Source: a plasmid
Direction: 5' to 3' (one strand)
Sequence record: NZ_CP092205.1
Length of the DNA stretch: 64,000 bases
In this document: piece after piece, positions 13,807-64,000 of the stretch
How the letters are laid out: each line of letters begins with the position of its first letter
How positions within the stretch are numbered: position 1 is the stretch's first letter
Position numbers and translations under genes: made by a program
Notes under the pieces: generated by a model
Databases searched by the model: none
Told to the model about the DNA's origin: nothing
Seen by the model: the letters and a program-made list of their open reading frames with translations, nothing else

Positions 13807-14522
13807 GAGGTACTTTTTCTAACGATCCATTTGATTGGCAGGAAAAACCACAGTCTCCGGACGCGAGGATGACTCCTCCGATGCTTGCAACCGTAACCGA
13901 CGTCTTTCCTCGATTTCGTGCAAATGTTTTGACTACATTTGGAGAACCATTTCAAAAAGTTCGATACTTTGGACCTGCATTGAAACAAGGAGGAAATGCA
14001 CATGGTAGAGCCTTTGGTCTTAAAAAAAATCAGCTCGTATTGCTTGAGTTTATTGGAGGTTCTTTTCGCGCTCCTATCATCACTCAAGTTTTCCCTTTTT
14101 CTACCAAGGATTTCGACTTATCCAATATTCAGGACTTCTGGAATAAATATTCTTTTATCAACCCGGAGACAGACATAATTGATTTTCACGAGTCTGGCTA
14201 CGCGGTTCGTCAAACGACGAATAAGATAGAGGTTTATGACGATTCACAAGAAGTCGTATTAGAACTTGATTTTACATCCAAAAAAGCGACTCTCACATTT
14301 GAAAACGTAAAGATAAATTCTAAAGTTCAAATCAACGGGGATACAAAAATTGTGGGAAAAACTACCTTTGAAGGAGACTTGGATATAACTGGAAAAGTCG
14401 AAGCTACCGAAAAGATTATTTCAGATGTCGATGTGATCGCGGCGGGAACCTCTTTAAAAGAACACAACCATCTTTATAACCCAGGTCCATTGCCTCCTAC
14501 AAAGACTAGTCCTCCGATATGA
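13803..14522 (+). CDS. baseplate spike protein (gpV / Mu gp45-like)
   Basis: GGNAHGRAFGLKKNQLVLLEFIGGSFRAPIITQVF matches the gpV OB-fold motif; C-terminal KINSKVQINGDTKIVGKTTFEGDLDITGKV beta-helix repeats. Confidence 0.55.
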   Translation: MRGTFSNDPFDWQEKPQSPDARMTPPMLATVTDVFPRFRANVLTTFGEPFQKVRYFGPALKQGGNAHGRAFGLKKNQLVLLEFIGGSFRAPIITQVFPFSTKDFDLSNIQDFWNKYSFINPETDIIDFHESGYAVRQTTNKIEVYDDSQEVVLELDFTSKKATLTFENVKINSKVQINGDTKIVGKTTFEGDLDITGKVEATEKIISDVDVIAAGTSLKEHNHLYNPGPLPPTKTSPPI

Positions 14523-14545
14523 CCTAATCCGTTACGATTTTCTCT

Positions 14546-16114: not shown

Positions 16115-16193
16115 AAAAAAGGAATCCTTTTTGATTTCACTGACTTGAAAATCAAGCTCCGATAGCCTTCGTTCTTTCATACTTTCGGGCAGA

Positions 16194-19100
16194 ATGTCGT
16201 CTATCCGTGAAGTTGTTAAATCCACATTGCAAGTCTTAAAATCGAAGGAAAAGCCGGTAGGCTGGCCTTCGACTCATGCCGACGGTTCTGTTTGGCGAAA
16301 GGTAAAACCTTCCGGAGAGAAGGGGGCCTGGGCGATGATTAAATCGCCTTCGCAAGCACGAGCTTCCAAGATCATTGCGGATACGGTAAAGAAGATCGAA
16401 CATTCTCCTAAAGAAACAAACAAAAATAGCGAACCGCCTTCAATCGAAGAAAAACCGTTCACCCTCATTTCAGAAAAAGTACAAAAACCAAAAAAACAAA
16501 CCCTCTCTTCTGAACCGAATCTTTTCAATATAGCACCGAAGACAGAAAGAAAATACTTAAACCAAAATTACAAACCCAACTACTTCCCTGAATCGATTCG
16601 TGACTTAGGAGATTTTATCACACAGGTAAAAAATACGCTTTTAGACGCGGGACTTGACAAACGAGCCAGTGAGTTCGTTGATCTCGCTTACAAGGGAGAA
16701 AACAATCTAAATAGTCTTTTAAACATTTCTTACAAATTTGTAAGTATCTCCTCTGAAAGCGTAAATAAGATCATTCGTTTCTTAATTTCTTCAAAAGTTC
16801 AAGAAACAAAAAGATCACTTTCAGAGGCCATGCTTGGAAATGAGAATGCGGCCGGTGAGCATGACGTAAAGGAACCCAAAACCTCAAAACTCACGTCGGA
16901 TTCGCTTTCCGGAATTGTCGTTCAATTACAGGACTCTGAATTAAATCCGGATGACAGTTTATACGTTGAAAGACTCAAAGAATCCGTAGAAAAAAAACTC
17001 ATTCCTCTCGCTATATCGGCAAAGATAAACGACGCTCTTTCGAAACTTATAGAAAAAGAACCTTCGATCGTTTTAAAGATTATTCGAAACTATGTAACTG
17101 AATCTCTTCTCAATTATAACGCGAAAATCAAACCAAAACCAATTGATGATACCTCGCTAGTAAAACGCGCAGTTCTATCCACAAAGTTTAGAAACTTAGC
17201 CGATTCGATGGAAGAATCGATTCGTAACAAAGAAAGCCCACCCATTTCAAGGCAAAATGTAACTTTTCGCAGAGCGAGAATTGCAGATGCTATGTATGAA
17301 GACACCAAACAAATGCGGGACATTCAATCTGCGTTACGGGGAATAGCGGATGAGATAGATTTAGGGACGTTTCCTGAGAATCTCAAAAAGATAAAAAGCA
17401 AGAAGGACATTGAACAAATTCTCAATGTTTCTCATTCACTAGACAATCACAGGAATAATCGAGATACACAAACTCAGAAGCCCCTCACCGAGAGATTATC
17501 AGTATGGTTTCGAAAAATAGAACCGCGATTTATTTCAGAAACAGAAACGAATCACATAACTGTTTCTGGTAATAATAAAATATACAGTCATAATCTGACC
17601 TGGGCATACAAAAACGGGCTGATTTCAAAGTCAGAACTAGAACAAGCAAAGAAGGTTCAAAAAACAATCGGTTCCTATGAAGCCGAATTTATCGAATCTT
17701 CTAATTTGGAAGAAGTTGAGTCCTTGAAAAGACTCATGGATAAGTTTAATAAAATTGAACAGTGTCTTTATGCCCGTCCCGCAAAGCCAAATACAAAAAA
17801 CCCCGTAATTATAAAAGATAAACCCTATGAGTTATATTTTAAAGGAAATCCTTACTCGAACTATGCCGAAAGGTCGTTAGCTGTCCTTCGGTTAGGACTA
17901 AATACTTTTGAACAAGTCCATGAAGCCGGTCAGTATCTTCGCACCCTCATAGCAAAGAACAAAGACGGCGGATCCGATCCGAAGAAAATTGAAATTCGGA
18001 ATATGGAAAGGGAACTGATTGGAAATAAAATTCCAGGATTCTTTCCAACGCCAAAACCCTTAGCACAAAGACTTATCATTGAGGCAGATATTCAGCCTGG
18101 AATGGATGTTCTTGAACCCTCTGCCGGGAAAGGAGACTTAGCGGAAGTAATTTCGGAAGAGACAGGAATTCATCCTGATACGATTGAACCTATATTTTCC
18201 TTAAAGAACATTCTGCAAGCAAAAGGATATACGATTGTTGCGGACGATTTTTTAGATTTTGTGGATAGAAGGTATGATCGTATTCTAATGAATCCTCCGT
18301 TCGAGAAAGGATTAGATATTCGTCATGTATTACACGCCTATTCTCTACTCAAACCGGGCGGAAAACTCGTTGCAATCATGTCTGAAGGTCCGTTTTTTCG
18401 GGCGGATATTAAGTCACAGGAATTTCGAAAGTGGTTAACTGAAAAAAGAGGATCGTCTGAAAAGTTACCGGAAGGTTCTTTTACTGGAAAAGATTCTTTC
18501 AGACAAACCGGAGTCTCTACTCGCTTAGTAACTCTTACCAAGCATACAGATGATATTTTGTATCATAAAAATATGTCTGGAGGAATCTCACGCACCTTCG
18601 TTGATAACTACCAACCGGAATTGAATGTTTCGAATCGGGGAGTTGCGAGTAATTCGAATGATTGGACTTTAAAATTACCAACTGATGGAGATAAATTAGA
18701 AGACTGGCCAGTTCGATTTAAAACAAAAACCGAAGCGATCGATCAAGGTATAAGATCAAAACGCCTTATTCAGAAATATTTTTCAGAGCCGGAAGAATAT
18801 GGAAAAATCGTAAAACCGGCGGATCCAAATGTTCGTTCTGAAGCGATGAAAGGAAATCAGAATGCAGTCGGTGAACATATCGTTGAAGTGGGAATTCAAG
18901 GAATTTTGGATGAAAGAAATGCTATCCCACCGCAATCAAACACTACACTTATAAAAGAAACGGTAAAGTCCGTAAAACAAAAGTCCTTTAATTCCGTTTC
19001 TGAAATATTAGATGATAGGGAAAAAAACAAGGAATTCAAAGATGCAAATACTCGCGTAGAAGGTTCGAAGAAAGAAAGAGCCGCACTCTCAAAATTACTT

Positions 19101-20948
19101 TCCTATGCGGATATTTCAAATATGGATTTCGTAACAGCCGAACGAGTCGTAAAGAAAGATCGAGTGATAACTCCATTCAACGCTAGAGAACGTAAAGAAA
19201 AAGGGGAAAGTGCAGGGCTTACCTATTTAAAAGCAAAAATTTATGAAGCAATAGCGTCTAAACCTGCCGATTCTCCTTTTGCACGGGAACAATACGTTAA
19301 AAATTTAGAAAAGATTATGGCGCCTATTTTTAACGCCAAAACCATCAATGAAATACAAAGTTATTCTTTGAATTTTGTTGAGATTAGTCCTTACGATTTA
19401 AGCAATAAATTTGGAGAGGTTATGAACTCTCTTAAATCAAAATTAAATGGAATTACTGAGAACGAAAAAAACATTCTAAAGGAAGAATATCAAAAACTCT
19501 TTGCTGAAATTATCCCTGGCTCCGAGGTATTAGTTGATAGAATTCTTAATGGAAAAGTGATTAACTCTTATGATTTTCGTAAAGAAATCATGGTCTTTTT
19601 AAAGAAACCTTCCTATCGTTTCGATAACGATCCAAATTTGATTGTACATTCTACTGTATTTGGAGACAAACTGATTAACCTTCTCCGGAGGAGAACCGAT
19701 TCCGGAAAAAATATTTGGAATAATGCAAAGCTTTTTGAACCACTTGGTGAGCAAGAAGCAAAGGCACAGTATGAAAAGTATTGCAATAATTTTCTACGCG
19801 AAGATAAAGAGTATATCGAGCGTGTGAAAAAGAAATATCCAACGTTTGAAGATTATTTTCGTAAACGTTTTCAAAATGCTATAGGTAGAAGAGAGTTTGC
19901 TGAAAAAAAATATGCTTATGCAATTAATTTTAAAAAACCTCATTCCCGCGAAGAATGGGCAAAAGATCCAAAAAATCAAGTGAGGGAAAACAATTGGGAT
20001 TGGTTGGATAAAAAACGTTCAATCGGGACAAAGGGATCCGGCTATGAAATTCATGGCGGTTCACCACTTCCAAAGCTCATACGTGCCAATGGACGTATCG
20101 TTAAACCCAATGAAATTGCATCCGATCGATTGACTCAAGATTGGGGTTTTAAATCCGTACAATTTGGAAATTATATGGATGATCGAACTTCCCGAGAACA
20201 TATTACTCGTTTCGTATGTGCTTTAAAAGATTTAGAAGACGCTTTAGAAATGGATCTGTCTAAAGTGATCCATGAAGGAAATTTAAGCATGTCTTTTGGA
20301 GCTCGTGGAATTGGAAAGGCAATGGCTCATTATGAACCAGGATACAGAATCATAAATCTAACAAAGAAAAAAGGGGATGGAACTTTTGCTCACGAATTCG
20401 GGCATTTTTTAGATCACTTGGCTACAGGAAAAGAAGCCAACCGAGGTGGAAGTCATTACGTTAGCGAAGATTTTCAAGGGTCATTTGGCGATTCTGCTCG
20501 AGTTTTGATGAATGCTATTCGAAAATCACCTTCAGGAAAAAATACAAACTACTTTATTTCAGCGCAGAAAATCGGATCAAAATATTGGTCAAAACCAAGG
20601 GAATTATTCGCAAGGGCTTTTGAATCTTACGTTGAAGACAAAATGAAAGCGAAAGGAATGAAAAACAATTATCTGGTTGCCCCAAATACAGTCGGCGATC
20701 CTGATTCATTGACGGATGGCGAACTTAGGGAACTTGCTTATCCACAAAGAGAAGAAAGGATTCGAATTTATAACGCGTTTGAGGTTTTTTTTAGAGAAAT
20801 GAAGCTTCAAAAAAACTGGGTGAAACCATTCGATTCAAACACTCAACGAATTTCTTTGGTAGAAGAAAACCTAGATACGGTTGGTGATATTGTAAAACAA
20901 AAGAAAAAAAGAAAATCTGCGGTAGAAGACCAAGAAACTTTATTATAA
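16194..20948 (+). CDS. phage polyvalent protein: N6-adenine DNA methyltransferase domain + HExxH zincin-like metallopeptidase domain
   Basis: LEPSAGKGDL (SAM motif I) and ILMNPPF (NPPF motif IV) at ~aa 630-700. TFAHEFGHFLDH near the C-terminus. Internal repeats NENAAGEHDVKEP / NQNAVGEHIVEVG. N-terminal LLDAGLDKRASEFVDLAY is shared with the ORF at 4648. 1584 aa. Confidence 0.6.
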   Translation: MSSIREVVKSTLQVLKSKEKPVGWPSTHADGSVWRKVKPSGEKGAWAMIKSPSQARASKIIADTVKKIEHSPKETNKNSEPPSIEEKPFTLISEKVQKPKKQTLSSEPNLFNIAPKTERKYLNQNYKPNYFPESIRDLGDFITQVKNTLLDAGLDKRASEFVDLAYKGENNLNSLLNISYKFVSISSESVNKIIRFLISSKVQETKRSLSEAMLGNENAAGEHDVKEPKTSKLTSDSLSGIVVQLQDSELNPDDSLYVERLKESVEKKLIPLAISAKINDALSKLIEKEPSIVLKIIRNYVTESLLNYNAKIKPKPIDDTSLVKRAVLSTKFRNLADSMEESIRNKESPPISRQNVTFRRARIADAMYEDTKQMRDIQSALRGIADEIDLGTFPENLKKIKSKKDIEQILNVSHSLDNHRNNRDTQTQKPLTERLSVWFRKIEPRFISETETNHITVSGNNKIYSHNLTWAYKNGLISKSELEQAKKVQKTIGSYEAEFIESSNLEEVESLKRLMDKFNKIEQCLYARPAKPNTKNPVIIKDKPYELYFKGNPYSNYAERSLAVLRLGLNTFEQVHEAGQYLRTLIAKNKDGGSDPKKIEIRNMERELIGNKIPGFFPTPKPLAQRLIIEADIQPGMDVLEPSAGKGDLAEVISEETGIHPDTIEPIFSLKNILQAKGYTIVADDFLDFVDRRYDRILMNPPFEKGLDIRHVLHAYSLLKPGGKLVAIMSEGPFFRADIKSQEFRKWLTEKRGSSEKLPEGSFTGKDSFRQTGVSTRLVTLTKHTDDILYHKNMSGGISRTFVDNYQPELNVSNRGVASNSNDWTLKLPTDGDKLEDWPVRFKTKTEAIDQGIRSKRLIQKYFSEPEEYGKIVKPADPNVRSEAMKGNQNAVGEHIVEVGIQGILDERNAIPPQSNTTLIKETVKSVKQKSFNSVSEILDDREKNKEFKDANTRVEGSKKERAALSKLLSYADISNMDFVTAERVVKKDRVITPFNARERKEKGESAGLTYLKAKIYEAIASKPADSPFAREQYVKNLEKIMAPIFNAKTINEIQSYSLNFVEISPYDLSNKFGEVMNSLKSKLNGITENEKNILKEEYQKLFAEIIPGSEVLVDRILNGKVINSYDFRKEIMVFLKKPSYRFDNDPNLIVHSTVFGDKLINLLRRRTDSGKNIWNNAKLFEPLGEQEAKAQYEKYCNNFLREDKEYIERVKKKYPTFEDYFRKRFQNAIGRREFAEKKYAYAINFKKPHSREEWAKDPKNQVRENNWDWLDKKRSIGTKGSGYEIHGGSPLPKLIRANGRIVKPNEIASDRLTQDWGFKSVQFGNYMDDRTSREHITRFVCALKDLEDALEMDLSKVIHEGNLSMSFGARGIGKAMAHYEPGYRIINLTKKKGDGTFAHEFGHFLDHLATGKEANRGGSHYVSEDFQGSFGDSARVLMNAIRKSPSGKNTNYFISAQKIGSKYWSKPRELFARAFESYVEDKMKAKGMKNNYLVAPNTVGDPDSLTDGELRELAYPQREERIRIYNAFEVFFREMKLQKNWVKPFDSNTQRISLVEENLDTVGDIVKQKKKRKSAVEDQETLL

Positions 20949-35710: not shown

Positions 35711-35769
35711 GTAACCACCCAACTAACCACACCTTCCGCTAATTTCAAAAATCTGTTAAAATCCTTTTA

Positions 35770-36057
35770 ATGAAAAAACCGAATATCGATTGGCAAAAAG
35801 AGTTTGAAGATTTTTCCAAAAGCGGACTTTCCCAGCCTCAGTATTGTAAAGAAAAAGGGATTAAATATACGACGTTTCGTTACCATTGGGAGAGACGATT
35901 AAAAAAACAGGACAAAGACGGCTTTGTAGAAGTGCCTCACTCAGCATTAAACGTTAGCTCTGCTTCAGGGTCTGAATTTTTGACTCTAAAAATAGATTCG
36001 TCAGGTAAGGCGCATCTTCAAATGAATCTTCAGTTTAGTCTTGGTATATGGAGCTAA
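35770..36057 (+). CDS. tnpA: IS66 Orf1 (TnpA-like)
   Basis: 95 aa, HTH-like, first ORF of the IS. Confidence 0.7.
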   Translation: MKKPNIDWQKEFEDFSKSGLSQPQYCKEKGIKYTTFRYHWERRLKKQDKDGFVEVPHSALNVSSASGSEFLTLKIDSSGKAHLQMNLQFSLGIWS

Positions 36058-36395
36058 ACCCGGGTAGCAGAAAAGTGTATTTGAGACCTGGGGTCACAGA
36101 TTTAAGGAAGTCAATCAATACACTTGCGATCATCGTAGAGGGCAGAATGAAGAAGGACCCATATTCAGAGAGCCTATTTTTATTCTGCAATCGTAAGAAG
36201 GACAAACTGAAAATGCTTTATTGGGACAAGAGTGGATTTTGTCTTTGGCAGAAGAGATTGGAAGAAAGCAAATTTCCGTGGCCGAACACGGAGGAAGAAG
36301 TTCAAAAGATTCCCGTGGAAAGATTTCATTGGCTATTGAACGGAATTGATTTTTTCAAGGAACACAAGAAACTAAAATATCAGAAAGTAAGCTGA
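36048..36395 (+). CDS. tnpB: IS66 Orf2 (TnpB-like)
   Basis: 115 aa, MELNPGSRKVYLRPGVTDLRKSINTLAIIVEG typical of IS66 Orf2. Confidence 0.75.
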   Translation: MELNPGSRKVYLRPGVTDLRKSINTLAIIVEGRMKKDPYSESLFLFCNRKKDKLKMLYWDKSGFCLWQKRLEESKFPWPNTEEEVQKIPVERFHWLLNGIDFFKEHKKLKYQKVS

Positions 36396-36437
36396 AACGA
36401 TTGACTAAAACTTTGTGTTGATTACAACTTCATCATC

Positions 36438-38099
<1,662 letters not shown>

Positions 38100-38107
38100 T
38101 CGCTTAC

Positions 38108-41580: not shown

Positions 41581-43209
41581 CTAAAAAACTAAATCCTTGT
41601 CCGGTTCAAATTCCTCTTCGAATTCTTCATTTGACTCTTCGTCGTCTATCCCGTTTTCATTTTGTTCGGGATTTTCATCATATCCCATTTCAGAATAATC
41701 CTGACTTTGAACAGCTCCCGTAGCGTTTTGCTGGATTTGCATCATATTCTGTTGAAAAATTGGATTTAATATGAGGGCTCCTGCCATTTTGTAATCTTCA
41801 ACCGGAACGCCATAGAGATCGGCGAGTGTTTCGCCCACTGTCGGATCATCTTGTGCAATTCGAATTTCATCCACGAGTTTCCAATTCATTACTTCGTCTT
41901 TTTGTTTTTGAATTTTATCCTTCTCATCTTCCGGATCCTTTCCGCTAAATTCGCAAACAATCCCTCCGAAATCATCTTCCCGAAAATTTTTGAGTCTCGT
42001 AAACGCAGATTCAAAGTAAGTTAAAAGACTAAGTTTAGCACGAGTCATCGAGTGCTTGCTTTTTTCGGTTTGGTTTGCTTCTGATAAAGATTGTGAACCG
42101 ATAAGACGCAAGCCTAATTCCGATTGATCCATTCCATGGCCCATGAGTACAAGACTCACGCACCACTGCATGAGATCTTTAAATACCATTTCATTCGGAA
42201 TGTTGAGTGGTGTCCATTTTACCTCACCCGCAGAAGTACCCAAAATCGGAATGCGATGGGAGTCATCGAGGCCTGAAATCATTTCTTGCCATTGAAGCTG
42301 AAGAGAATCTAACGCTTCTTGGCTGATATCACCTTGGAAAGAGAGATAACCGTAAGGATGTTGTCTGGAAAACGTATCTCGATTGAATTTTAGAGAATTG
42401 ATAACGCCAACAAGATCGAGCATACAGGCCTCTAATGGAGAAAAGCCAAAGCCCCTCATGGAAACGTCTGAAAGATGATTTTTGTGAAGCCAAAGAATTT
42501 CGTTCGCTCCAAACGTCTCGACTATGTTGTCATCGATGATTTGAACATACGCAATGGAACGATCTCCTCTGTACCCTTTTGCGGGATCCACGGGAAAAAT
42601 TGTCGCAGGATCCAAATATCTGATTTCGATTAACTTGCCGAAGGGATTAAAAATTAGAAAAAACGCGATTGAATCGATAGTGAGAGTATCTCTCGTCATC
42701 ATTTCGAAAACAGAACCTAGGTGATCGCGATTTGCCCAACCGGCCGTTAAATCACCCATCTTATCAAACCATTTACCGCATCGTTTCATACGAGTGCTGA
42801 TTTCATCCGTTACCTCTTCATCCTCGTCTTCCATTCGAAACCACAAACCACATTTGGAACTGATCCGCGCAAACTTACTCAAGTCCTCAACGCGAACCGT
42901 ATGAATTGCAGAAATCAAAGAAGTGCCGTAACTGGCACTGCGAAGATGAGGAATAGGGATTCTCCAAGTCGGCCGCAACTGAATCCCATCTCGGATTTGT
43001 TGCATCTGATCGTAGTTATATACGGGATTACGGCCGGCGACTTCCGGAGTGTTCACTTGACCGAACCAGGATTTAGCAAGGTGTAAGAGTCTTTGATTGA
43101 TCTTTTCGTTTTTAAGTCCGATCTCTTTGGAACGTTCCAGTCTGATTCTCTTTTCAAGATTCTTTTCATAATCATTTCCACGCGGCCGGCCTTTCCCTTG
43201 TTTCACCAT
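41581..43209 (-). CDS. portal-like protein (tentative)
   Basis: 542 aa with strongly acidic C-terminus; size and composition only. Confidence 0.3.
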   Translation of the reverse strand: MVKQGKGRPRGNDYEKNLEKRIRLERSKEIGLKNEKINQRLLHLAKSWFGQVNTPEVAGRNPVYNYDQMQQIRDGIQLRPTWRIPIPHLRSASYGTSLISAIHTVRVEDLSKFARISSKCGLWFRMEDEDEEVTDEISTRMKRCGKWFDKMGDLTAGWANRDHLGSVFEMMTRDTLTIDSIAFFLIFNPFGKLIEIRYLDPATIFPVDPAKGYRGDRSIAYVQIIDDNIVETFGANEILWLHKNHLSDVSMRGFGFSPLEACMLDLVGVINSLKFNRDTFSRQHPYGYLSFQGDISQEALDSLQLQWQEMISGLDDSHRIPILGTSAGEVKWTPLNIPNEMVFKDLMQWCVSLVLMGHGMDQSELGLRLIGSQSLSEANQTEKSKHSMTRAKLSLLTYFESAFTRLKNFREDDFGGIVCEFSGKDPEDEKDKIQKQKDEVMNWKLVDEIRIAQDDPTVGETLADLYGVPVEDYKMAGALILNPIFQQNMMQIQQNATGAVQSQDYSEMGYDENPEQNENGIDDEESNEEFEEEFEPDKDLVF

Positions 43210-50838: not shown

Positions 50839-52062
<1,224 letters not shown>

Positions 52063-52884: not shown

Positions 52885-53847
52885 TTAGAGAAATCCATTT
52901 TCCTTGAGGGTCTTTTCGGTAAGGCCTGTGATTTCCAGGATAGTCTTTAGATCGATCCCTTTCTTTAGCATCTTACCGGCATCTTCCAGTTTCCCTTTTT
53001 CAATACCTTTTTCAATGCCCTTCTCGATACCTTGCTCGATACCCTTCTCGATACCTTGTTGTATCCCTTCCGAAATGAGTCTTTCCGCGGTTGTCATCGT
53101 CAATTCCTCATATTGTTCCAATTTAGATCGTTGAAGGACTCCCTTCAATTCCGATGGCTTCAAATCTCGAACCCAGTAAATATACAATAACAGTTTCCGT
53201 AAGATTGCAACCCTTTTCGATTCTTCCTCGACTCCAAGTAATAGGGAAAATAACCCCGGTAAGTGAGAAATGAGTTCCAAATCCCCTTCCCGGATTTTTT
53301 GAACCACTCCCAGAGTCACTTGAAACGTGATACTTTCCAACTTCTCCTTCAATTCTATTCCTTTCAAATCGAACAAGTCGATCCTAAAATCCGGAATAAA
53401 GTCCTTGAGAATTTCCGTTTCTTGTTTCGTTAGAATGAATTGTTCCAAAAATCGATCTCCCAATTTCCATTCCTTTTCTCCGTGATAGAATACGAACGGA
53501 ATGACTACGGAAAGAGGCTCTCCATTCCTTTGTTGGTTTCGATAGATTTCTGTGAGATATCCGAGTAGTTGGATGTAGATGCTATTTTCTAAATAACTTT
53601 TGTGTTCGAAGAGTAAATACACGTTGGTCCGATTTCCGGACCTGAGCGGGATTTGGAACAGTAGATCGGTTTGTTCTTGTTTTAATTCTTCGCTTACAAA
53701 ACTCGATTCGGACAATTCTAAGTTTTCCAAGTCAAGTAGTTCTACCACTTCCCGCGGGAGTGTGTTTTTGAAGAAAGTGGCTGCCTCTTTTTTGTCTTGA
53801 AATGTTTCTCGGATCAATCGATCGTGCGGATTGTTCACTTCGGTCAT
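52885..53847 (-). CDS. Rpn-family (YhgA-like) recombination-promoting nuclease / putative transposase
   Basis: N-terminal [26 protein letters not shown]… and …[10 protein letters not shown]… motifs, GIEKGIE repeat tail; 320 aa. Confidence 0.65.
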
Positions 53848-54095
53848 CCGATATCTTTGGGATATCGTTTGGGCAGGTCAATTGCATTTAGGAATGTGCT
53901 TCTTCTCGGATTTGGCTTTTTTTCCGGGACAACGAAATAATTTTCTCCCAAAGTTTTTTCGGAATTTCTGAATCATATTTGTTCATTTTATAAATATATT
54001 TTTACTCTTCAATAGTAGAAGCAGTTTTGAGATCGGCTTTAAAAATCACCAAAAAATAAAAGTAACAACTCTAGTGTTAAAATTCAAGATCCATT

Positions 54096-54986
54096 CTATC
54101 GGATACGTCGACTAAAAATACTAGCGACGATTTCCGCCCTTTTAGCTTTATCAATGGATGGATGTCTTATCGTAAAATCATAATGTGCATCCACAATGTT
54201 AAGCGTGACATTAGCTTTGGATGCGATAAGTTTCAACTGGTACCCGTGATTATCTATGATTCGATACAAACCTAAGACGCCGAAAGAAAAAATTCGGCTT
54301 AAAAAAGGCAAAGGCGAACCTTCCATAACCAATTCTCGAATTTCGAAAGCGTCGTAATGCAAAATCGCGACTGACCACAGAATTGCAAAAATCAATAAAC
54401 CGAAAGCAGAATAGGAACCTAAAAAAATAGATCGTAACGGTAAAACGTAGTTGAATACAAGAATGGTTAATAATGCGATCAAGATTCCTGAAAGCATCAA
54501 AAAAGAACGAATCCTTTTATCCCCTCGCTTTTTAATCATAGCATTACCTAATTCCAGGGAACTTTTAATAACAGATAAAAAACCAAACATCATAAGCAAG
54601 TGGTAACTAAATAAAGGCGAGAACGAATAGTCTGACATATTATCGATCTTTGCATAACCACCGAAAAGAGAAATAAACGAGAAGGTAGGCAAAAGAATAT
54701 ATATTAAAATTGTTCTATAAAGATTTAGCTTAAATTTTTTACCGATGATTAAGCATACGACCAAGTCAAGGAAAAGTGAAATGAATGGAATCGGAAATAA
54801 AATCCAATTCGCAAATATTTCTCGAATTGCAATCGGCACTTGCATTCGCATACCGAAGCCGATCATCCAGCCGGAAAGCATTAAACATAAGCCGAGGAAA
54901 TATTTCTGAACTCTTGCACGCGGTGGTATGCGGAAAACATAAATTCCAAGGTATAGAATAAAGAATCCGGCTACATAAGTTATCAT
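54096..54986 (-). CDS. polytopic membrane protein, unknown function
   Basis: 296 aa with ~8 hydrophobic helices. Confidence 0.4.
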   Translation of the reverse strand: MITYVAGFFILYLGIYVFRIPPRARVQKYFLGLCLMLSGWMIGFGMRMQVPIAIREIFANWILFPIPFISLFLDLVVCLIIGKKFKLNLYRTILIYILLPTFSFISLFGGYAKIDNMSDYSFSPLFSYHLLMMFGFLSVIKSSLELGNAMIKKRGDKRIRSFLMLSGILIALLTILVFNYVLPLRSIFLGSYSAFGLLIFAILWSVAILHYDAFEIRELVMEGSPLPFLSRIFSFGVLGLYRIIDNHGYQLKLIASKANVTLNIVDAHYDFTIRHPSIDKAKRAEIVASIFSRRIR

Positions 54987-55019
54987 TCAAAAATCCTAAA
55001 GGGCATACTTGCCACGCCA

Positions 55020-55649
55020 TTAGAATTCTTTTGACGCAATTTTCTGTAAAGTTTCTTTTTCTAATTCTATAATAGAACAAACACAAAGTTTGCCCTTCAA
55101 ATATAATCCGGGATAGTATATTTTTTCATAAAATCTGTGGGATTCGTAGGCACCGAATTTCTTATAAAATAATCCAACACTTTTAAGATTGATTGGATAC
55201 ATTCCATAAACGATTGAGAAATCTTTTTCGATACAAAATTTGGCGGCAGCTTTGAAAGTTTCTCTTGCCGCTCTCCAACCCTCTAAACTATGAACAAACG
55301 CTAAAGAATTCCAATCGGCGACATTCTCCTCTATTACGGCGTAACGCCGTAATGGAACTTTTTCTTTTTCGTTGTAGATGACTGCATTCTCAATAGGGAT
55401 AATGTTGTACGGCTTTTTTTCAATAATACGCATGACAGAAAGAATCTCGTTATTTTTTTCAAAATAAAACCAGTAAGACCATTCATCGTAATTAAATGCA
55501 CGCCAGGGAGTGTCGCTATACCCGGCATTTGCATATGAAACACGTAAGAATTCTTTGATTTTAGAAAGTTCCTCTCTCGATTCATAACCAGAAATCATTT
55601 TGATAGATTTATTTAAAATTAATATAGACATAATTTTATTATGTCTCAT
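55020..55649 (-). CDS. hypothetical protein (possible acyltransferase-like fold)
   Basis: 209-aa ORF; weak resemblance to GNAT or autoinducer-synthase-like proteins only. Confidence 0.3.
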   Translation of the reverse strand: MRHNKIMSILILNKSIKMISGYESREELSKIKEFLRVSYANAGYSDTPWRAFNYDEWSYWFYFEKNNEILSVMRIIEKKPYNIIPIENAVIYNEKEKVPLRRYAVIEENVADWNSLAFVHSLEGWRAARETFKAAAKFCIEKDFSIVYGMYPINLKSVGLFYKKFGAYESHRFYEKIYYPGLYLKGKLCVCSIIELEKETLQKIASKEF

Positions 55650-55709
55650 TTATATTTAAAATCAAGCAAAGGTTTCTTTTTTTTATAATATTCTAATTTT
55701 CCAATCAAT

Positions 55710-56120
55710 CTATTTGTTTAAGTTTAAAACTAAATTCAATATCAATTCGTATTTATCGGATTTCGTCATTGAAAGGGCCTTTACGATTTTGAATAATTCA
55801 GCATTCTTTTTAATTTTGGTAAAAAATCGAATTTCATCATCGGTAAAATTTCCACCTCTTTTCTTATCTACAAACATATCCGCTTTACCATAGAAAACCC
55901 ATTCCGCGGAAACATCTGTTACATATTCAAATGTTATCGCCATTGGCCAAGTCAAAGGAATTTTACGATTAGCAATTCTAGAAAGATTACTCGAAGCAAT
56001 CTTCATGCGGCTTGCAATACTGTTTTGAGTTTCCCCAAAGTTTTTCTTTAAATATTCGAGGGCATAAGTAAACCGCTCTGCTATTTCCTCGCTAATTATT
56101 TCAGTATTATCATGTTCCAT
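55710..56120 (-). CDS. XRE-family HTH transcriptional regulator
   Basis: ETQNSIASRMKIASSNLSRIANRK helix-turn-helix near the N-terminus. Confidence 0.5.
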   Translation of the reverse strand: MEHDNTEIISEEIAERFTYALEYLKKNFGETQNSIASRMKIASSNLSRIANRKIPLTWPMAITFEYVTDVSAEWVFYGKADMFVDKKRGGNFTDDEIRFFTKIKKNAELFKIVKALSMTKSDKYELILNLVLNLNK

Positions 56121-56217
56121 AATTTTGCACTATGCATTTTTTTATAATTGACAAAATTGCTTGATGCAATATATAAAATGAATCATCCTAAAAACTAAAC
56201 ATTGTCCTGGTCTATAA

Positions 56218-56991
56218 ATGTCTGATTTAGATTTAGTAAAATCCGAAACCAAAAATCTATTCGAAAGCCCCGCCGTTTTCAATTCCGCTCGAAAAATTTG
56301 TAATAGGGTATTTTTTCTACCATTCTTTTTTAAATATTCTAAACAGATTCAAAACACTTTTGATTCTCGGTTACAAAATAATCTGCCAAAGAACATTCAA
56401 AATATCGACTTAGAACATATCGAATTCAAACTAAACTCGTTTCTCTTGAATAAAGACTATAACGACGAAGAGTTTCAAAAACCGGACTTTGCCGCTTTCC
56501 CTGGGTTATCAACACACCCAGCATCCCATCCTTCGGATAGAAAATTAAATACCGGCTTCACGGATTTTTTGAATTTCAAAAGATTAGAGGAATCCAAACA
56601 ACTGATTTCTATTTCTAAACTTCCGCATAATCTACTCAATATTGAGTTCGAATGCGGTTTTAACTCTCTCGCCACTTTCTATCGATCTTGTAATAAATTT
56701 TACAATTGTTCTCCCAAGGAACTACATAAGTTTTTTTTAGATAATTTATCTGTTCTTAGGAAAAAAAACATATACGAAATAAGCGCAAGAAAATTAAAAC
56801 TTTTTTCCTTAACTTACCGGATTCAAATTTTCTCCTTCCTATTACTCTGGTCAATTCTTAGATCAATTTTAAGAGTCAAACACTCATACAAATTTTATTC
56901 GTCAATAGTTAGTTACCACCTAAATCAACATAATCGAATTCGTTTCCATGATTTTATAAATCAATGGCGCCCAAGTCCTTCCAATGTTTGA
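56218..56991 (+). CDS. AraC-family HTH regulator paralogue (soluble, possibly degenerate)
   Basis: …[18 protein letters not shown]… AraC-type HTH. Paralogous to the next gene; unusual ~80-aa extension after the HTH. Confidence 0.4.
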
Positions 56992-57892
56992 TATGAATAC
57001 TTTCGGATTTTATTATGGTGTTTTTCTTTATTCCTGTGGGGCGACATTAGTCTGTTTTAATTTTATCTTAGGAAATTTAGACAACCCCTGGAATTATTAT
57101 AAACGCCTTTTATGGATTATTCCAATTACGATTTTTTTTTCTTATTTTATTCCGAATTTTTATTTTGTATCCATTATTGATATTCTTGGTTTCGGAATTT
57201 CTTTATTTACTACCGTCTGGGCTTTTAGAAAATTATTAATAACTCAAAAGCCGTTTTCTTACTTCAACCTTCCTGTGATTTCCCTCTTCATTTCTATTTG
57301 TTTTGTTTTAGATTTTCTTGGCGCGATTTTCGATAATAAAGATTTCTTACTGATTTCGGAATTGATTTCCGGTTTGGTGATCTGCTACACGGTTATTTTA
57401 GAACGGATATTTCCATTTTTGTTTTGTAAGGTGATCAGCTTAGATTTAGAGAATCCAATTCCAGATCATTTGTCCGAAAGCAAGCATCCTTCGAAACACA
57501 ATCTATTGGATGGCGTCGACTTAATCAAAGTCGAAATGAAACTGAATTCTTTTTTAGCGTCCAAAGGTTTTAAAGACGAGGAGCTTAGACTCCCCGATTT
57601 CGCGTCAGCCTTAGGTCTTTCCACTCATCAGGCCTCTCATTATTTGAACAAGTATCTGAGCATGAGTTATAATGATTTTTTAAATCATCACAGAATCAAT
57701 GAGGCAATCAATATGCTCCGTACCCATTCTAAATTTAATCTTTTAGATATCGCTTTTGAATGTGGATTCAATTCTTCCTCGTCTTTTCATAGGGCTTGCA
57801 TTAAATTCACGGGAAAATCCCCTTTTAAACTTAAGAGGTATATTCAGCTGAATTCCGAATCGAATATAGAAGTAGATACTCAAAATACGTAA
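56984..57892 (+). CDS. membrane-anchored AraC-family transcriptional regulator
   Basis: Four or more N-terminal TM helices, C-terminal AraC HTH (…[28 protein letters not shown]…). Confidence 0.5.
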
Positions 57893-58051
57893 ATAACGTG
57901 AGTTTCGGCCTAAGAAAGTTTGGGCGAATCGCTCGCGACCGCGCTTTAACTCAATGTTGCTGCCTACGGTCGCAACATATAATTCGTTTTCGCATTTTGT
58001 TATACCGAATTCACGTTAATTTATACGAGACTCAGGTTACGAAAGTAATTA

Positions 58052-58469
58052 TCAAAGTTCGCCATAAACAGATGTTGAAGTAAATTGATTGAAATCAAAT
58101 AATTCGGAAGACTTATTAGCACCTGGAATTCCTGTTGAAGTATCGACACGATCAAATCCAGATGCTATAAAAATTTTCGATCCATTAACTAAATTAGCCG
58201 TATGTCCCGATCTCTTCGTTTGCATCTGTCCAGACCCTACAACTGTCATACTTCCTGTATCATATAACTCACAAGAAGAAAGAATAGGAGATCCCGTAAG
58301 AATTTGATTCCCCCCACATAATATAATTCTATTTGAGGCAGTAGAGACGGCAGTATGCCCTACCCTAAACTCACTTATATTTCCTACCGAAGAAAATGTA
58401 TTCAAACCTGAATCATATAATTCCACTACTTTCGTATTCGATACGAAAGGCGGAGTTGTTACTTTATAA
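58052..58469 (-). pseudogene. Kelch-repeat lipoprotein gene, 3' fragment (split by IS66 copy 2)
   Basis: Kelch-like …GHTA…LCGGN… repeats; the ORF-track start at 58507 lies inside the IS end. Confidence 0.5.
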
Positions 58470-58528
58470 GTAACCACCCAACTAACCACACCTTCCGCTA
58501 ATTTCAAAAATCTGTTAAAATCCTTTTA

Positions 58529-58816
58529 ATGAAAAAACCGAATATCGATTGGCAAAAAGAGTTTGAAGATTTTTCCAAAAGCGGACTTTCCCAGCCTCAG
58601 TATTGTAAAGAAAAAGGGATTAAATATACGACGTTTCGTTACCATTGGGAGAGACGATTAAAAAAACAGGACAAAGACGGCTTTGTAGAAGTGCCTCACT
58701 CAGCATTAAACGTTAGCTCTGCTTCAGGGTCTGAATTTTTGACTCTAAAAATAGATTCGTCAGGTAAGGCGCATCTTCAAATGAATCTTCAGTTTAGTCT
58801 TGGTATATGGAGCTAA
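58529..58816 (+). CDS. tnpA: IS66 Orf1 (TnpA-like)
   Basis: Identical to the 35770 ORF. Confidence 0.7.
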   Translation: MKKPNIDWQKEFEDFSKSGLSQPQYCKEKGIKYTTFRYHWERRLKKQDKDGFVEVPHSALNVSSASGSEFLTLKIDSSGKAHLQMNLQFSLGIWS

Positions 58817-59154
58817 ACCCGGGTAGCAGAAAAGTGTATTTGAGACCTGGGGTCACAGATTTAAGGAAGTCAATCAATACACTTGCGATCATCGTAGAGG
58901 GCAGAATGAAGAAGGACCCATATTCAGAGAGCCTATTTTTATTCTGCAATCGTAAGAAGGACAAACTGAAAATGCTTTATTGGGACAAGAGTGGATTTTG
59001 TCTTTGGCAGAAGAGATTGGAAGAAAGCAAATTTCCGTGGCCGAACACGGAGGAAGAAGTTCAAAAGATTCCCGTGGAAAGATTTCATTGGCTATTGAAC
59101 GGAATTGATTTTTTCAAGGAACACAAGAAACTAAAATATCAGAAAGTAAGCTGA
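58807..59154 (+). CDS. tnpB: IS66 Orf2 (TnpB-like)
   Basis: Identical to the 36048 ORF. Confidence 0.75.
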   Translation: MELNPGSRKVYLRPGVTDLRKSINTLAIIVEGRMKKDPYSESLFLFCNRKKDKLKMLYWDKSGFCLWQKRLEESKFPWPNTEEEVQKIPVERFHWLLNGIDFFKEHKKLKYQKVS

Positions 59155-59196
59155 AACGATTGACTAAAACTTTGTGTTGATTACAACTTCATCATC

Positions 59197-60858
<1,662 letters not shown>

Positions 60859-60866
60859 TCGCTTAC

Positions 60867-61656
60867 CTTTATAACCTCCGGTTACTAAAACATTTCCATT
60901 AGATAAAAGATTCGCCACATGCAAAGTTCGAGAAACACTTAAACTTCCTGATGAGGAAAATGTCAACGTGGTCGGATCAAAAAGCTCAGAAGTAGCGACA
61001 GTAGCTTGGCCATTATCCAATCCGCCAATGATTAAAATTTTACCATTGTTTAATTTGGTAGAAGTATGAAGGCAACGATTGAAATTTAAATTACCAGCAG
61101 GAGCAATTGTAAGGTTAGTAGGATCAAATAGTTCTACACTTCTTAAAATAGAATCTGCCTTTCCTCCTGCAATAAGCACTCTACCATCATTCAAAAGATC
61201 TAAACTAAAATCTGAACGGCCTTGATTTAAATTTGGCCCACTAATTATAGAATTTGTTAAAGGATCGTAAATTTCAGTTTGAATTAAAGGAGGAGCAGCA
61301 TTCGACGCCGCGCTTAACGGACTAGGATTACCGCCAACGATAAAGACTCTTCCATCCAATAGACGAATAGATTTAAAATTTGAACGCGCAAACCTCATGC
61401 TATTTACTTGAAATATAGTATTTTGAATAGGATCAAATTGAAAGATATCATTATATACTTTGAAACCATTTTGACCGCCTATTATCAAAATATTATTCCC
61501 GATCGGGACAGAAACATGGCCATATCTACCATATTTCTGCGCATTAATTAACAAAAGAGCAAGTAAACCTAATTTTTTAGTATCATCGTCATCTGATGGA
61601 TTACATTGCAAAAAAAGAAATGCCCCAATCAGAAATTTAACAAATAAGTATTTCAT
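60867..61656 (-). pseudogene. Kelch-repeat lipoprotein gene, 5' fragment (split by IS66 copy 2)
   Basis: Signal peptide plus lipobox (FLQC), Kelch-like GG…repeats. The ORF reads through into the IS. Confidence 0.5.
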
Positions 61657-61725
61657 ACAACTACCGCGTTTTTATTTATAATTTATTATATCAATATTCA
61701 ATTTTTTGAAAATTTTAAGACCTAT

Positions 61726-62463
61726 CTAATTCGGTGGTTCAACAGACTTGTTGTCCTCATCTAAGATCAGTCCAGAGCTGCTTTCATTTTCAGAAGGCGG
61801 CGGAATTGTTGGAGTCGCAGGTTCATCCGGAGCTGGCAATGGGCATGCTGGGGAAGGATAAACAATACATTCTCCGCACTGAATAACCCCTTGAACCATT
61901 TGACAAGTCGGGTTATCGTTTTTTGGTTTATTATTATCATTCGTGGTTCCATTTCCCCCACTTTTTAAATACGGATTTGAAAAATAAATGATTTCCATAA
62001 TATGGCTTCGCAGACTTCTTCTTTTTTCTCTACTTTTCAGTGCTTGGCCATTTTGATTATTACGAGTTGTTCTTTGTGTCCATTTTAGAATGCCCTTATA
62101 AGCGTTTTCTAAACCTTTCGTTATATCTTTCGCATTAACTTTCTTTCCTATATAGCTACGATGAAAATCTTTTCCAATACTTTTTGTACTAGGTCTATTT
62201 CCATTATGAAAATCCTTCCCGATCGCATGACCAACAATCCGATTCACCATGTGCATCAAACCGGCAACGCTTACATGACCGCTCGGATCTCGATAACTCA
62301 CCGGATTTCCAGCTCCGTCCGTGATCATCGTAATTGAGCCCAAATGATCCGGATGATAGAAATACATTCCGGTTACCGACATTCCTCCCACACTTCCACC
62401 GCCTGTCATTCCTACTCCCGGGTTTTGAATACTAGAAACTCCAGGCGCAACATTCGCTCCCAT
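61726..62463 (-). CDS. orphan RHS/polymorphic-toxin C-terminal cassette
   Basis: MYFYHPDHLGSITMITDGAGNPVSYRDPSGH resembles the RHS core end (YxxHxDHLGS…TD..G…DPxG), followed by a unique C-terminal domain. Confidence 0.5.
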   Translation of the reverse strand: MGANVAPGVSSIQNPGVGMTGGGSVGGMSVTGMYFYHPDHLGSITMITDGAGNPVSYRDPSGHVSVAGLMHMVNRIVGHAIGKDFHNGNRPSTKSIGKDFHRSYIGKKVNAKDITKGLENAYKGILKWTQRTTRNNQNGQALKSREKRRSLRSHIMEIIYFSNPYLKSGGNGTTNDNNKPKNDNPTCQMVQGVIQCGECIVYPSPACPLPAPDEPATPTIPPPSENESSSGLILDEDNKSVEPPN

Positions 62464-62533
62464 TGCAAGGAGCCAAGGAGGATCTCCTTCTTTATCGCCA
62501 TTTCACCATCCACTAATTTAATTCTTACGAGAC

Positions 62534-63103
62534 TCAACTGAAACAAATATTAGTTAAAAAAATATTAACCGCTAATCCTATAACTTCGTTTTGTTTTTTT
62601 TCGACGTTTGAAAAAGGATACAATATTCCACCCCATAGAGAATAGTATGCACTCCATGGAATTTTGATATCCAAGGCATGTATTTTCTGATTTTGCTTTG
62701 AATCAAATACAGCCATAGATATGTTGGAAATTCGATTAGAATGAATTGGAAATATTCCCGCTGAGAGTGTCCCAACTATATTAAAAAAATTAAATGGTAT
62801 GCTTGCCTCTTCCGAATATATCATCTTATATTTAAGATTATTTAATTTCTTATTTGAAGATAGTTTAGTTTCTATATATGTTACCATCGTATCCCTATTT
62901 ATATTATCAAAAAATCTAAATCTATCTTTTCTATTTTCATTTATTTTTTGATCTGGAAATTCCAATTTAATTTCTGAAAAAGACATACAGGAATTCGTGA
63001 TATTTGAATTAACCAGATGATCATAATTCTTAATTCTTCCTGTAAATACGCAGCCATGGAAAATGAAAATTGAAATGATTAACGTGCTAACTTTGTGAGT
63101 CAT
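62534..63103 (-). CDS. putative immunity protein (signal-peptide protein) for upstream toxin cassette
   Basis: Starts 1 nt after the 63104 toxin ORF stop; N-terminal signal sequence; AT-rich. Confidence 0.35.
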   Translation of the reverse strand: MTHKVSTLIISIFIFHGCVFTGRIKNYDHLVNSNITNSCMSFSEIKLEFPDQKINENRKDRFRFFDNINRDTMVTYIETKLSSNKKLNNLKYKMIYSEEASIPFNFFNIVGTLSAGIFPIHSNRISNISMAVFDSKQNQKIHALDIKIPWSAYYSLWGGILYPFSNVEKKQNEVIGLAVNIFLTNICFS

Positions 63104-63853
63104 CTAAAACATTCCTCCCGAAGACATTCCAATTCCAAAAGCCCCACCACCCGTGCCTGTTGTAGTTCCAACTACGCAGTTATAGGTCATTTGATAAGTT
63201 GTTATTGGATCATTAGTTGATAATGAACCTAAGTTCTTTTGAAAATGATTATTCATAAAAACATATGCACACGCTTGTGAATTAGGAATATGTCGACGGG
63301 AATTAGAATAATCTATTAGATCTTCTGCATCTCTCCCAATTTTAGCCAACTGATAAGCGATAATGTATGGGTTTTTGACAATTATTATAGTTACAATGCC
63401 TGCGACTGCGTCGCTTAAATCAATTGCCCATTTAACCATTTTCCGTTTAGAATCAAGCTTCTCTTGATCCATGGCATTTCCCCACAGATAACCATCATAC
63501 ATACCGTCCATAGTTCCCGTTGTTAGATATCCTAAAATAGCTCCCTTAGTTGAGCTTTTCATTCCTCTAAGTTTCGTTGGATTATGAAAGAACGTTCCAT
63601 TATGGAAAAAACGATTTCCGCCAGTCGAAATTCCATTTGCACTCAATCTTTTGTCCATGTCCTTCGAATCAAAATCCTTCCCGATCACATGACCGATCAT
63701 CCGATTCACCATGTGCATCAAACCGGCACCGCTAACATGACCACTCGGATCACGATAACTTACTGGATTCCCATCCATATACATATAACGATTCATACCA
63801 TTCACATTAGTCGGCACAACAACAGAATCCGCTTGCAAGAACCTTCCTAACAT
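63104..63853 (-). CDS. orphan RHS/polymorphic-toxin C-terminal cassette
   Basis: Frame open from 63904. Upstream in-frame remnant GLYYYKSRYCEPMLGRFLQADSVVVPTNVNGMNRYMYMDGNPVSYRDPSGH matches the RHS core tail (YYYRARYYDPxxGRFxxxDP…). Unique C-terminal domain. Confidence 0.5.
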   Translation of the reverse strand: MLGRFLQADSVVVPTNVNGMNRYMYMDGNPVSYRDPSGHVSGAGLMHMVNRMIGHVIGKDFDSKDMDKRLSANGISTGGNRFFHNGTFFHNPTKLRGMKSSTKGAILGYLTTGTMDGMYDGYLWGNAMDQEKLDSKRKMVKWAIDLSDAVAGIVTIIIVKNPYIIAYQLAKIGRDAEDLIDYSNSRRHIPNSQACAYVFMNNHFQKNLGSLSTNDPITTYQMTYNCVVGTTTGTGGGAFGIGMSSGGMF

Positions 63854-64000
63854 TGGCTCGCAATACCTCGATTTGTAATAATATAAACCGGACTCTTTCT
63901 GTTATTGTAATTTTTGCGAGGCTCAGGTAAATTATTGCTTTCAACCGGCAAAGACTCACACCATACTTCTCTAGGTGCATTCCTATAGAAACTCGCAAAA

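Follow-up and report, generated by a model that had tools for sequence, protein, structure and literature searches.

Arrays of orphan rhs-CT/rhsI genes reportedly lie downstream of the main rhs genes in Salmonella, E. coli and Dickeya (Jackson 2009, Poole 2011, Koskiniemi 2014). A comparable arrangement is found at the end of a 64,000-nucleotide (nt) stretch of plasmid record NZ_CP092205.1 (the window, by which we mean the whole stretch analysed), a phage-like plasmid of Leptospira weilii, where the minus strand between positions 61726 and 64000 holds three tightly packed open reading frames (ORFs) of 249, 189 and 245 amino acids (aa). As in the enterobacterial arrays, the toxin-type ORFs lie on the same strand, and each shows a 5' truncation, a piece of the RHS-associated core, a divergent C-terminal toxin domain and, behind it, a small linked gene of the immunity type. 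Unlike their enterobacterial counterparts, they reside on a spirochaete plasmid, and the parent toxin is a fusion of SpvB, FG-GAP and YD-repeat parts and not a PAAR- or VgrG-linked Rhs protein of a type VI secretion system; furthermore, the homology among the Leptospira proteins runs at least 22 residues past the cleavage site, both cores in the window are damaged, and the putative immunity genes of Leptospira encode lipoproteins, some of which are Kelch propellers. By type, the region belongs with the ordinary orphan toxin/immunity arrays of Rhs polymorphic-toxin loci, which have been described in general terms (PMC3482391). We read it, with a probability of roughly 0.78, as the distal part of such a locus, with two displaced, orphaned toxin-tip/immunity modules that are currently silent reservoirs or decaying remnants. 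Two toxin families, a genus-specific leader behind the cleavage site, the combination of a parent resembling the toxin complex (Tc) proteins with lipoprotein immunity genes, and the pairing of toxins with Kelch proteins appear to be new.

Throughout, cassette 2 denotes the ORF at 63104-63901 and cassette 1 that at 61726-62511, CT2 and CT1 are their respective toxin domains, and designations such as L004 and P0001 are our own for loci and proteins. Cassette 2 is annotated at 63104-63853 (249 aa, minus strand), but its frame remains open back to 63901, giving QKESGLYYYKSRYCEPMLGRF, with a stop codon directly upstream and a full length of 265 codons. The first 55 codons (63737-63901, GLYYYKSRY...NPVSYRDPSGH) are a 5'-truncated remnant of the RHS-associated core, scoring 55.6 bits against TIGR03696 (cut-off 32.5, E=5.5e-15) over model positions 26-76 of 76 only; thus, the last two-thirds of the core are kept and the 5' third is gone. 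The annotated ATG at 63853 is an internal methionine of the core, and no credible start codon is available to the cassette. Residues 4-55 align with the core end of TccC2, TccC3 and YenC2 in the Protein Data Bank (PDB), which places H55, the histidine of DPSGH, opposite the C-terminal residue of the fragments to which YenC2 (690 aa) and TccC2 (664 aa) are cleaved. An alignment to 8h8b that reached into the toxin was discarded as low-confidence filler.

Cassette 1, annotated at 61726-62463 (245 aa, minus strand), is damaged in a different manner. Its homology to full-length genes reaches back to 62511, beginning at GDKEGDPPW upstream of the ATG and right after a stop codon. The segment at 62275-62511 (minus strand, GDKEGDPPWLLAMGANV...) comprises about 45 pre-core residues, the start of the core (YFYHPDHLGSITMITDGAG, YFYHPDHLGS...DGAG), which extends to 62308, and the last 11 core residues with NPVSYRDPSGH at 62275-62307. 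Compared to the intact homologue of L. alexanderi (L001), 85 core codons have been deleted in frame, with a GGxAAYCC microhomology at the junction, and by homology the lost stretch would include the first of the two catalytic aspartates (LQAD). Owing to this deletion, cassette 1 matches the Pfam RHS family in fragments only, at 12.7 bits and under the cut-off of 27.9. The earlier statement that both ORFs begin with the end of the core therefore holds for cassette 2, while cassette 1 opens with pre-core sequence and the core start. When 62463-62511 is compared to L001:10603-10660, the L. alexanderi homologue is seen to have an in-frame start, MAIKKGDSLWLLAMGANV. The corresponding ATG of the window, at 62501, lies in another frame, apparently through a 1-nt difference in a GGGAG/GGAG run, and cassette 1 has therefore also lost the L. 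alexanderi-type start. In L012, a fragment of cassette 1 (11203-11415) breaks off behind VSYVSY and continues in the AraC flank; a common breakpoint with the cassette of the window was rejected, as L012 runs 10 codons further into the core before a deletion of its own. From the state of their cores, neither cassette is predicted to be able to make a working Rhs protein alone.

The protein search returned 62 homologues, nearly all from Leptospira and all of them 150-464 aa long, most of which are named 'RHS repeat-associated core domain-containing protein'. Full-length genes are present at related loci. In L. weilii plasmid NZ_CP092210.1 (L004), a 2,317-aa ORF at 13925-20878 contains SpvB (1.4e-17), FG-GAP_3 (4.9e-13) and RHS_repeat (3.8e-31) matches and a core that aligns to TccC3 and YenC2, and in L005, L008, L010, L011-L014, L016 and L017 RHS genes of 2,285-2,351 aa are followed by small lipoprotein genes and then by one to four orphan cassettes. 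The preliminary description of the window had taken the two ORFs for orphan Rhs toxin cassettes, and the significant partial core, the RHS-core homologues in Leptospira and the arrays beside full-length genes all bear this out. RHS/YD repeats were found neither in the cassette ORFs nor elsewhere in the window, as would be expected of orphans. L. weilii L011-L013 are 99.8% identical to the window over 53782-58031, 97.6% over 62303-63231 and 93% over 63668-64000. The end of their 2,307-aa RHS gene lies 1.55 kb past the equivalent of position 64000, and behind it come, in order, genes for an 89-aa lipoprotein, a Bor-like protein and a 94-aa lipoprotein; L004 presents the same picture at 92% identity. 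By this synteny, a full-length RHS parent gene is probably present beyond 64000 in the window's own replicon.

The main genes of Leptospira resemble the BC cocoon of Tc toxins (TcdB2-TccC3, YenB-YenC2) in having SpvB, FG-GAP, RHS repeats and a core within a total length like that of TcB plus TcC, and in a core end that aligns with the autoproteolysis site of TccC and YenC2, with the variable region behind it. Tc loci have been reported to be without immunity genes (PMC7861908), unlike the Leptospira modules, each of which has a candidate; a further difference lies in hydrophobic, lipobox-like insertions before the Leptospira core. In the full-length proteins (L004:13925-20878, P0016, P0039, P0064) this insertion is located between the last YD repeats and the core and comprises the hydrophobic segments FYFLLLLGVCYLSYPYFL and TPALILSLFVVTSLPGCG, the second of which ends in a lipobox-like LPGC. 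No product annotated as TcA occurs in the gene tables of the flanks examined, to which no dedicated TcA search was added. Divergently oriented from the main RHS gene, a trio of genes conserved in several species (L004:21208-24199, L008:1985-5090, L017:1-1091) encodes a large Kelch/'galactose oxidase' protein, a hypothetical protein of some 290 aa and a TPR protein; the trio may serve the RHS locus in an accessory role or in export.

The two cassettes are linked by a 106-nt direct repeat, the single long direct repeat found and far beyond chance, whose copies at 62206-62311 and 63668-63773 are 89% identical and span the last core codons and a leader. The repeat encodes GNPVSYRDPSGH followed by the 22 residues VS(G/V)AGLMHMVNR(M/I)(I/V)GH(V/A)IGKDF, the leader proper being located at 62209-62274 in cassette 1 (VSVAGLMHMVNRIVGHAIGKDF) and at 63671-63736 in cassette 2 (VSGAGLMHMVNRMIGHVIGKDF), both on the minus strand. 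The 34 codons in common differ at 11 of their 102 nt, which changes six codons synonymously and four non-synonymously, and past GKDF the two proteins diverge completely. The peptides, the repeat of about 100 bp and some 90% identity, and the point of divergence had been described correctly before. In-frame coding and conservation at the protein level with synonymous changes led us to reject the repeat as a mobile-element end or a regulatory repeat. The leader, with the consensus (V/I)SGxG(L/M)MHMxNRxxGHxxGKDF, starts right after the predicted autoproteolytic site; since H55 aligns with the last residue of the cleaved fragments, it would form the first part of the released fragment, and by homology it is likely the N-terminus of the released toxin and not the tail of the core.

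The leader is present in at least 41 of the 62 homologues, all of these from pathogenic Leptospira (L. interrogans, noguchii, kirschneri, santarosai, alexanderi, weilii, alstonii and yasudae), and in these it is fused to many unrelated C-terminal domains through one of two alternative linkers after GKDF, xSKGLDKKLSTxGxSxGxNRF... or HNGNxPSxKSIGKD.... Among full-length proteins it occurs in P0067 (residues 2137-2185) and in the main gene products of L005, L008, L010, L016 and L017, and it is absent from P0046, P0047 and from proteins of Leptospiraceae metagenomes and metagenome-assembled genomes that share the DPSGH core end. When the 102 nt of core end and leader are compared between species, 14-26 positions differ and about half of the altered codons are synonymous, while copies within one genome encode identical peptides. 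This pattern indicates that the leader is under constraint at the protein level and homogenised within genomes. The segment had been said to belong to no named pretoxin domain, and we agree: Pfam and NCBIfam gave no match to it in either cassette (E<=1) or in ten homologues (E<=0.1), none of the Pfam models PT-TG, PT-HINT, PT-VENN and DUF637 matches it, and a profile search of the PDB matched the core, not the leader. AlphaFold places a helix over the leader with low confidence. In mosquito SGS1 (PDB 8fjp_A), the residues after the core end (DPDGQ|IAVTLVLMIIGAIVGAYLG), which form a membrane helix, align with the leader, which itself contains a GxxxG-like GHxxG motif; the SGS1 alignment may be coincidence.

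A short conserved motif at the boundary between constant and variable regions that acts as a recombination boundary is also known from the VENN motif of orphan CdiA-CT/CdiI modules (PMC3482391). The Leptospira leader is unrelated in sequence to VENN, and CdiA is delivered by a type V secretion system, with VENN preceding the toxin in an uncleaved filament, whereas the leader sits after the autoproteolytic site and would travel with the toxin. How such a boundary may have been used is illustrated by L. weilii L012, in which core stub and leader are as in cassette 2 but another toxin, the HNGN-type P0040, follows GKDF and brings along a lipoprotein gene of 213 aa. Toxin and lipoprotein gene take the place of 63231-63668 of the window, and 3' of them the last ~130 nt of CT2 remain, as does the 189-aa gene. 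Judged from this comparison of strains, the arrangement is the classical footprint of a displaced toxin/immunity module, the upstream crossover lying at the end of the leader; tip replacement in enterobacterial rhs loci likewise leaves a 3' remnant of the old toxin together with its immunity gene.

Linker and toxin domain of cassette 2 (63104-63670, minus strand, stop codon included) comprise a hydrophobic helix, AVAGIVTIIIVKNPYIIAYQLA, and a glycine-rich tail. An exhaustive HMMER search with the released CT2 fragment among 1.84 billion representatives found 11 proteins, and only two of these, P0001 of L. noguchii (58% identity) and P0063, contain the body of CT2; P0012, P0042 and P0064 share its N-terminal half, with strongly hydrophobic, glycine-zipper-like stretches. 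Our best guess is that CT2 may be a membrane-active toxin. In P0063 (146 aa), a pre-core segment is joined straight to the middle of the CT2-type domain. From L. interrogans, a polymorphic-toxin C-terminal domain confined to Leptospiraceae, PT8 (EKO85988.1), has been described together with PIM8 (EKO85992.1), the immunity gene downstream of it, and PT8 was experimentally toxic and permeabilised membranes (bioRxiv 10.1101/2021.10.19.465003). PIM8 has 116 aa and is thus neither the 189-aa protein nor a Kelch protein.

Immediately after the TAG stop of cassette 2 follows the ATG of the candidate CT2 immunity gene (62534-63103, minus strand), whose 189-aa product has a lipoprotein-like N-terminus, a hydrophobic stretch ending in a cysteine. 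In L. noguchii, P0001 is separated by 1 nt from p181, a 181-aa lipoprotein gene with a product 33% identical to the 189-aa protein (E=6e-27). An identical 189-aa protein is encoded in L. alexanderi beside only the last 128 nt of CT2, and a near-identical gene (p189) has been kept in L. weilii L012. The assignment of the 189-aa protein as the putative immunity protein of CT2 is supported by this tight coupling, the co-occurrence, a faster divergence than that of the toxin and survival without it, and the earlier description of the gene as immunity-like is well in line with the conserved pair and with its retention where the toxin is lost. A single immunity superfamily uniting the 189-aa protein with p201 and I211 is not claimed, as the evidence obtained is weak (E about 0.01).

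The linker of cassette 1 is of the HNGN type, and together with the toxin domain it occupies 61726-62208 (minus strand, stop codon included). CT1 combines a conserved C-x8-C-x2-C-x7-C motif with a basic stretch and an acidic, proline-rich tail. A word-indexed search returned only the sequence itself, but tblastn revealed in-frame homologues with 50-73% identity, and the idea that CT1 is a singleton or a frameshift product was dropped. These homologues are P0037 (50% over 186 aa), an orphan of L. interrogans plasmid p3 (L008, 52.8%) and an unannotated sequence of L. sanjuanensis (L015, 72.6%), and the four-cysteine motif is common to all of them.

Downstream of cassette 1, 70 nt past its stop codon, starts the 5' part of a Kelch gene of subfamily K2 (60867-61656, minus strand), which has matches to Pfam Kelch_4, Kelch_6 and Kelch_1, a lipoprotein-like N-terminus and 59% identity to the Kelch gene following P0037 in L007. 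The 3' part is found at 58052-58469 (minus strand, 52% identical to residues 262-399 of K2 from L007), and the two are separated by a 2,397-bp element of the insertion sequence (IS) family IS66 (58470-60866, plus strand), flanked by an 8-bp target duplication, CTTTATAA, at 58462-58469 and 60867-60874. Removal of the IS and one duplication restores ...GGYK|VTTPPF... and colinearity with the orthologues, which in other species are intact, 399 aa long and 77-83% identical. A second copy of the element at 35711-38107 is 99.96% identical, and both carry tnpA, tnpB and a gene for a 553-aa TnpC. The 70-nt gap upstream of the Kelch start holds the best promoter-like match of the region (61685-61712: TTTTCA, 16-nt spacer, TG-TATAAT; 10 of 12), which could be the gene's own promoter; the overall scan was not enriched over shuffles, and promoter and terminator scans for independent expression of the cassettes likewise showed no enrichment over shuffles. 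The preliminary description had mentioned neither the defects of the two cores nor the IS-disrupted Kelch gene as a candidate immunity gene for cassette 1.

The association with Kelch genes is a recurrent one. The next gene after every CT1-type toxin found is a K2 gene (52-83% identity; L007, L008 with NZ_CP043890.1/NZ_CP043886.1, and L015), and in NZ_CP043890.1/NZ_CP043886.1 toxin and K2 genes overlap by 23 nt. Similarly, the P0035-type toxin pairs with subfamily K1 (L007, NZ_CP043896.1) and the p111-type toxin with K3 (L015, L010). An intact K1 gene lies behind a toxin remnant of only 46 codons in NZ_CP043888.1, and in L010 a K1 gene (Kel382) has no called toxin gene upstream. Identities are 52-92% within and 24-32% between the three subfamilies, and the gaps between toxin and Kelch genes range from -23 to +26 nt in most pairs. 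A survey of polymorphic toxins from 2012 did not find the beta-propeller fold among immunity proteins (PMC3482391), and the literature searched for Kelch immunity proteins reported since that survey yielded none.

Taken together, we propose a model in which the parent toxin would be a lipoprotein-like protein of about 2,300 aa whose SpvB, FG-GAP propeller, YD-repeat shell and RHS-associated core build a cocoon like that of TcB-TcC, and whose core, by homology, would cleave itself after ...NPVxYRDPSGH and thereby free the C-terminal toxin. Each orphan would consist of a core-coding stub, the Leptospira-specific 22-residue leader, a differing toxin domain and a lipoprotein immunity gene, with stub and leader providing the upstream homology for tip swaps between cassettes or onto the full-length gene; one such swap is shown by the strain comparison, and the others are extrapolated. 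Module A would pair the predicted membrane-active CT2 with the 189-aa lipoprotein, and module B the small four-cysteine domain CT1 with a Kelch beta-propeller lipoprotein, here split by IS66. Both modules are likely silent or decaying, because cassette 2 is without the 5' third of the core and a start, cassette 1 is without 85 core codons, and the Kelch gene is split.

Several points weigh against this reading. CT1 and CT2 match no family in Pfam, NCBIfam or the PDB, sequence and profile searches matching the core only; the profile search of the C-terminal domains that had been proposed earlier thus returned neither a housekeeping nor a toxin family, and any mode of action for either domain is a guess. 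An AlphaFold2 model of released CT2, built from an alignment of 14 sequences, is unusable (predicted local distance difference test score 41.7). The parent gene of this replicon is deduced from synteny, and toxicity and its neutralisation by the neighbouring gene are predicted from comparative evidence, namely conserved pairs and immunity genes kept where the toxin is lost. The main RHS gene of L004 and L012, moreover, ends its core with NPIDRIDSTGY and has no leader, which rules out the 106-nt repeat as a handle for exchange with this particular gene, and an exchange with a main gene of this type would need the core stub. The preliminary proposal of a recombination handle is therefore supported for a cassette-to-cassette tip swap between strains with the breakpoint at the end of the leader, but not for the syntenic main gene of L. 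weilii. Finally, K2 genes occur in RHS loci without a CT1 toxin in L. kmetyi and L. barantonii, which fits orphan immunity but also a function other than immunity.

The damage itself might be taken to mean that the cassettes are pure genomic debris on an IS-rich plasmid, with no reservoir role and with the 106 nt reflecting common descent only. Both cores are defective, the Kelch gene is disrupted, the window holds two IS66 copies, an IS481 and an Rpn-type transposase, and relatives show further truncations (P0063, p70 of L012, and an L004 cassette cut by IS3). We nevertheless consider this unlikely: the toxin frames are still open over 245 and 265 codons, the 189-aa gene is intact and has an identical counterpart in another species, an actual tip replacement with the leader as boundary has taken place at the same locus between strains, and even a defective core stub can still donate its toxin if the crossover falls within the leader. 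Independent deletions are many, loci of this kind decaying repeatedly across strains. The opposite view, by which the cassettes would be functional stand-alone toxins made from the annotated ATGs without a YD-repeat shell, is very unlikely. It would accord with the dozens of Leptospira proteins of this type of 150-460 aa in the databases, with cassette ORFs free of internal stops, and with PT8 (118 aa) and PIM8 as a validated short toxin/immunity pair of L. interrogans. The annotated ATGs, however, lie inside conserved core or pre-core sequence with homology running upstream to the stop codon; signal peptide, obvious ribosome-binding site and promoter enrichment are lacking, as are 85 core codons in cassette 1 and the first third of the core in cassette 2, and the same sequences form the C-termini of 2,300-aa proteins.

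With regard to the Kelch lipoproteins, we consider it rather probable that they are cognate immunity proteins. They might instead be accessory or surface proteins, binding receptors or sugars, that merely travel with the toxin cassettes: Kelch lipoproteins are numerous in Leptospira, another Kelch/'galactose oxidase' gene stands upstream of the main RHS gene in the conserved divergent trio, about 400 aa is unusually large for an immunity protein, and K2 is found without CT1 in the two species named. Such a role is possible, though we doubt it, given that the Kelch genes come directly behind the toxin on its 3' side, most pairs overlapping or being 4-26 nt apart, that they co-vary with the toxin domain and not with the core in three independent pairings, and that they are kept intact where the toxin is truncated (NZ_CP043888.1, Kel382 of L010). 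The joint proposition that Kelch lipoproteins provide immunity for at least three Rhs toxin families and that the leader is a functional element for delivery or anchoring, not a mere recombination scar, is tentative, and we would give it somewhat less than an even chance.

Upstream of cassette 2, the 3' end of a p94-like lipoprotein gene (63847-64000, minus strand, FASFYRNAPREVWCESLPVESNNLPEPRKN...) extends past the end of the window; it matches the C-terminus of the 94-aa p94 of L012 and of the L004 ORF at 12285-12698, with DNA identities of 92-93% to both. In L. weilii L012 and L004 the protein stops at ...EPRKN, whereas in the window the stop has been changed to tyrosine and the frame reads 20 codons into the core stub of cassette 2. 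This gene is probably of the immunity type and belongs to the module before cassette 2. Identity to other L. weilii falls from 99.8% in the AraC/HisKA_7TM flank to 93% in the stub of cassette 2, which shows that the toxin end has a mosaic history. Elsewhere, a phage-plasmid is suggested by a portal gene (4648-7386), a tail-tube-initiator-like gene (11857-13806), a 1,584-aa protein with a C-terminal LPD1 domain of large polyvalent proteins (16194-20948) and a 912-aa protein with an 'InPase' domain (41581-43209), and transposases of IS481 (50839-52062) and of the Rpn/YhgA type (52885-53847) are present. The cassette 1 protein has the same sequence as P0056, a plasmid-encoded hypothetical protein of Leptospira weilii (FH586_22055), and the truncated Kelch ORF beside it is identical to P0075; the top match in PLSDB spans 20% of the query, and exact 42-nt patterns of the window had no match in viral and metagenome contigs.

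Little is understood of pathogenic Leptospira, and the toxins that they direct at other bacteria or at the host have received hardly any study. The present comparison indicates that plasmids and chromosomes of these bacteria carry Tc-like Rhs toxins with exchangeable tips, the uncharacterised families CT1 and CT2 among them, together with lipoprotein immunity genes, and the 22-residue leader offers a simple sequence handle by which all Rhs toxin tips of Leptospira can be catalogued. If the Kelch lipoproteins are indeed immunity proteins, a large beta-propeller fold would join the immunity repertoire as a new structural class of toxin inhibitor, and part of the expansion of Kelch lipoproteins in pathogenic Leptospira would be explained, which would give a function to a conspicuous gene family.

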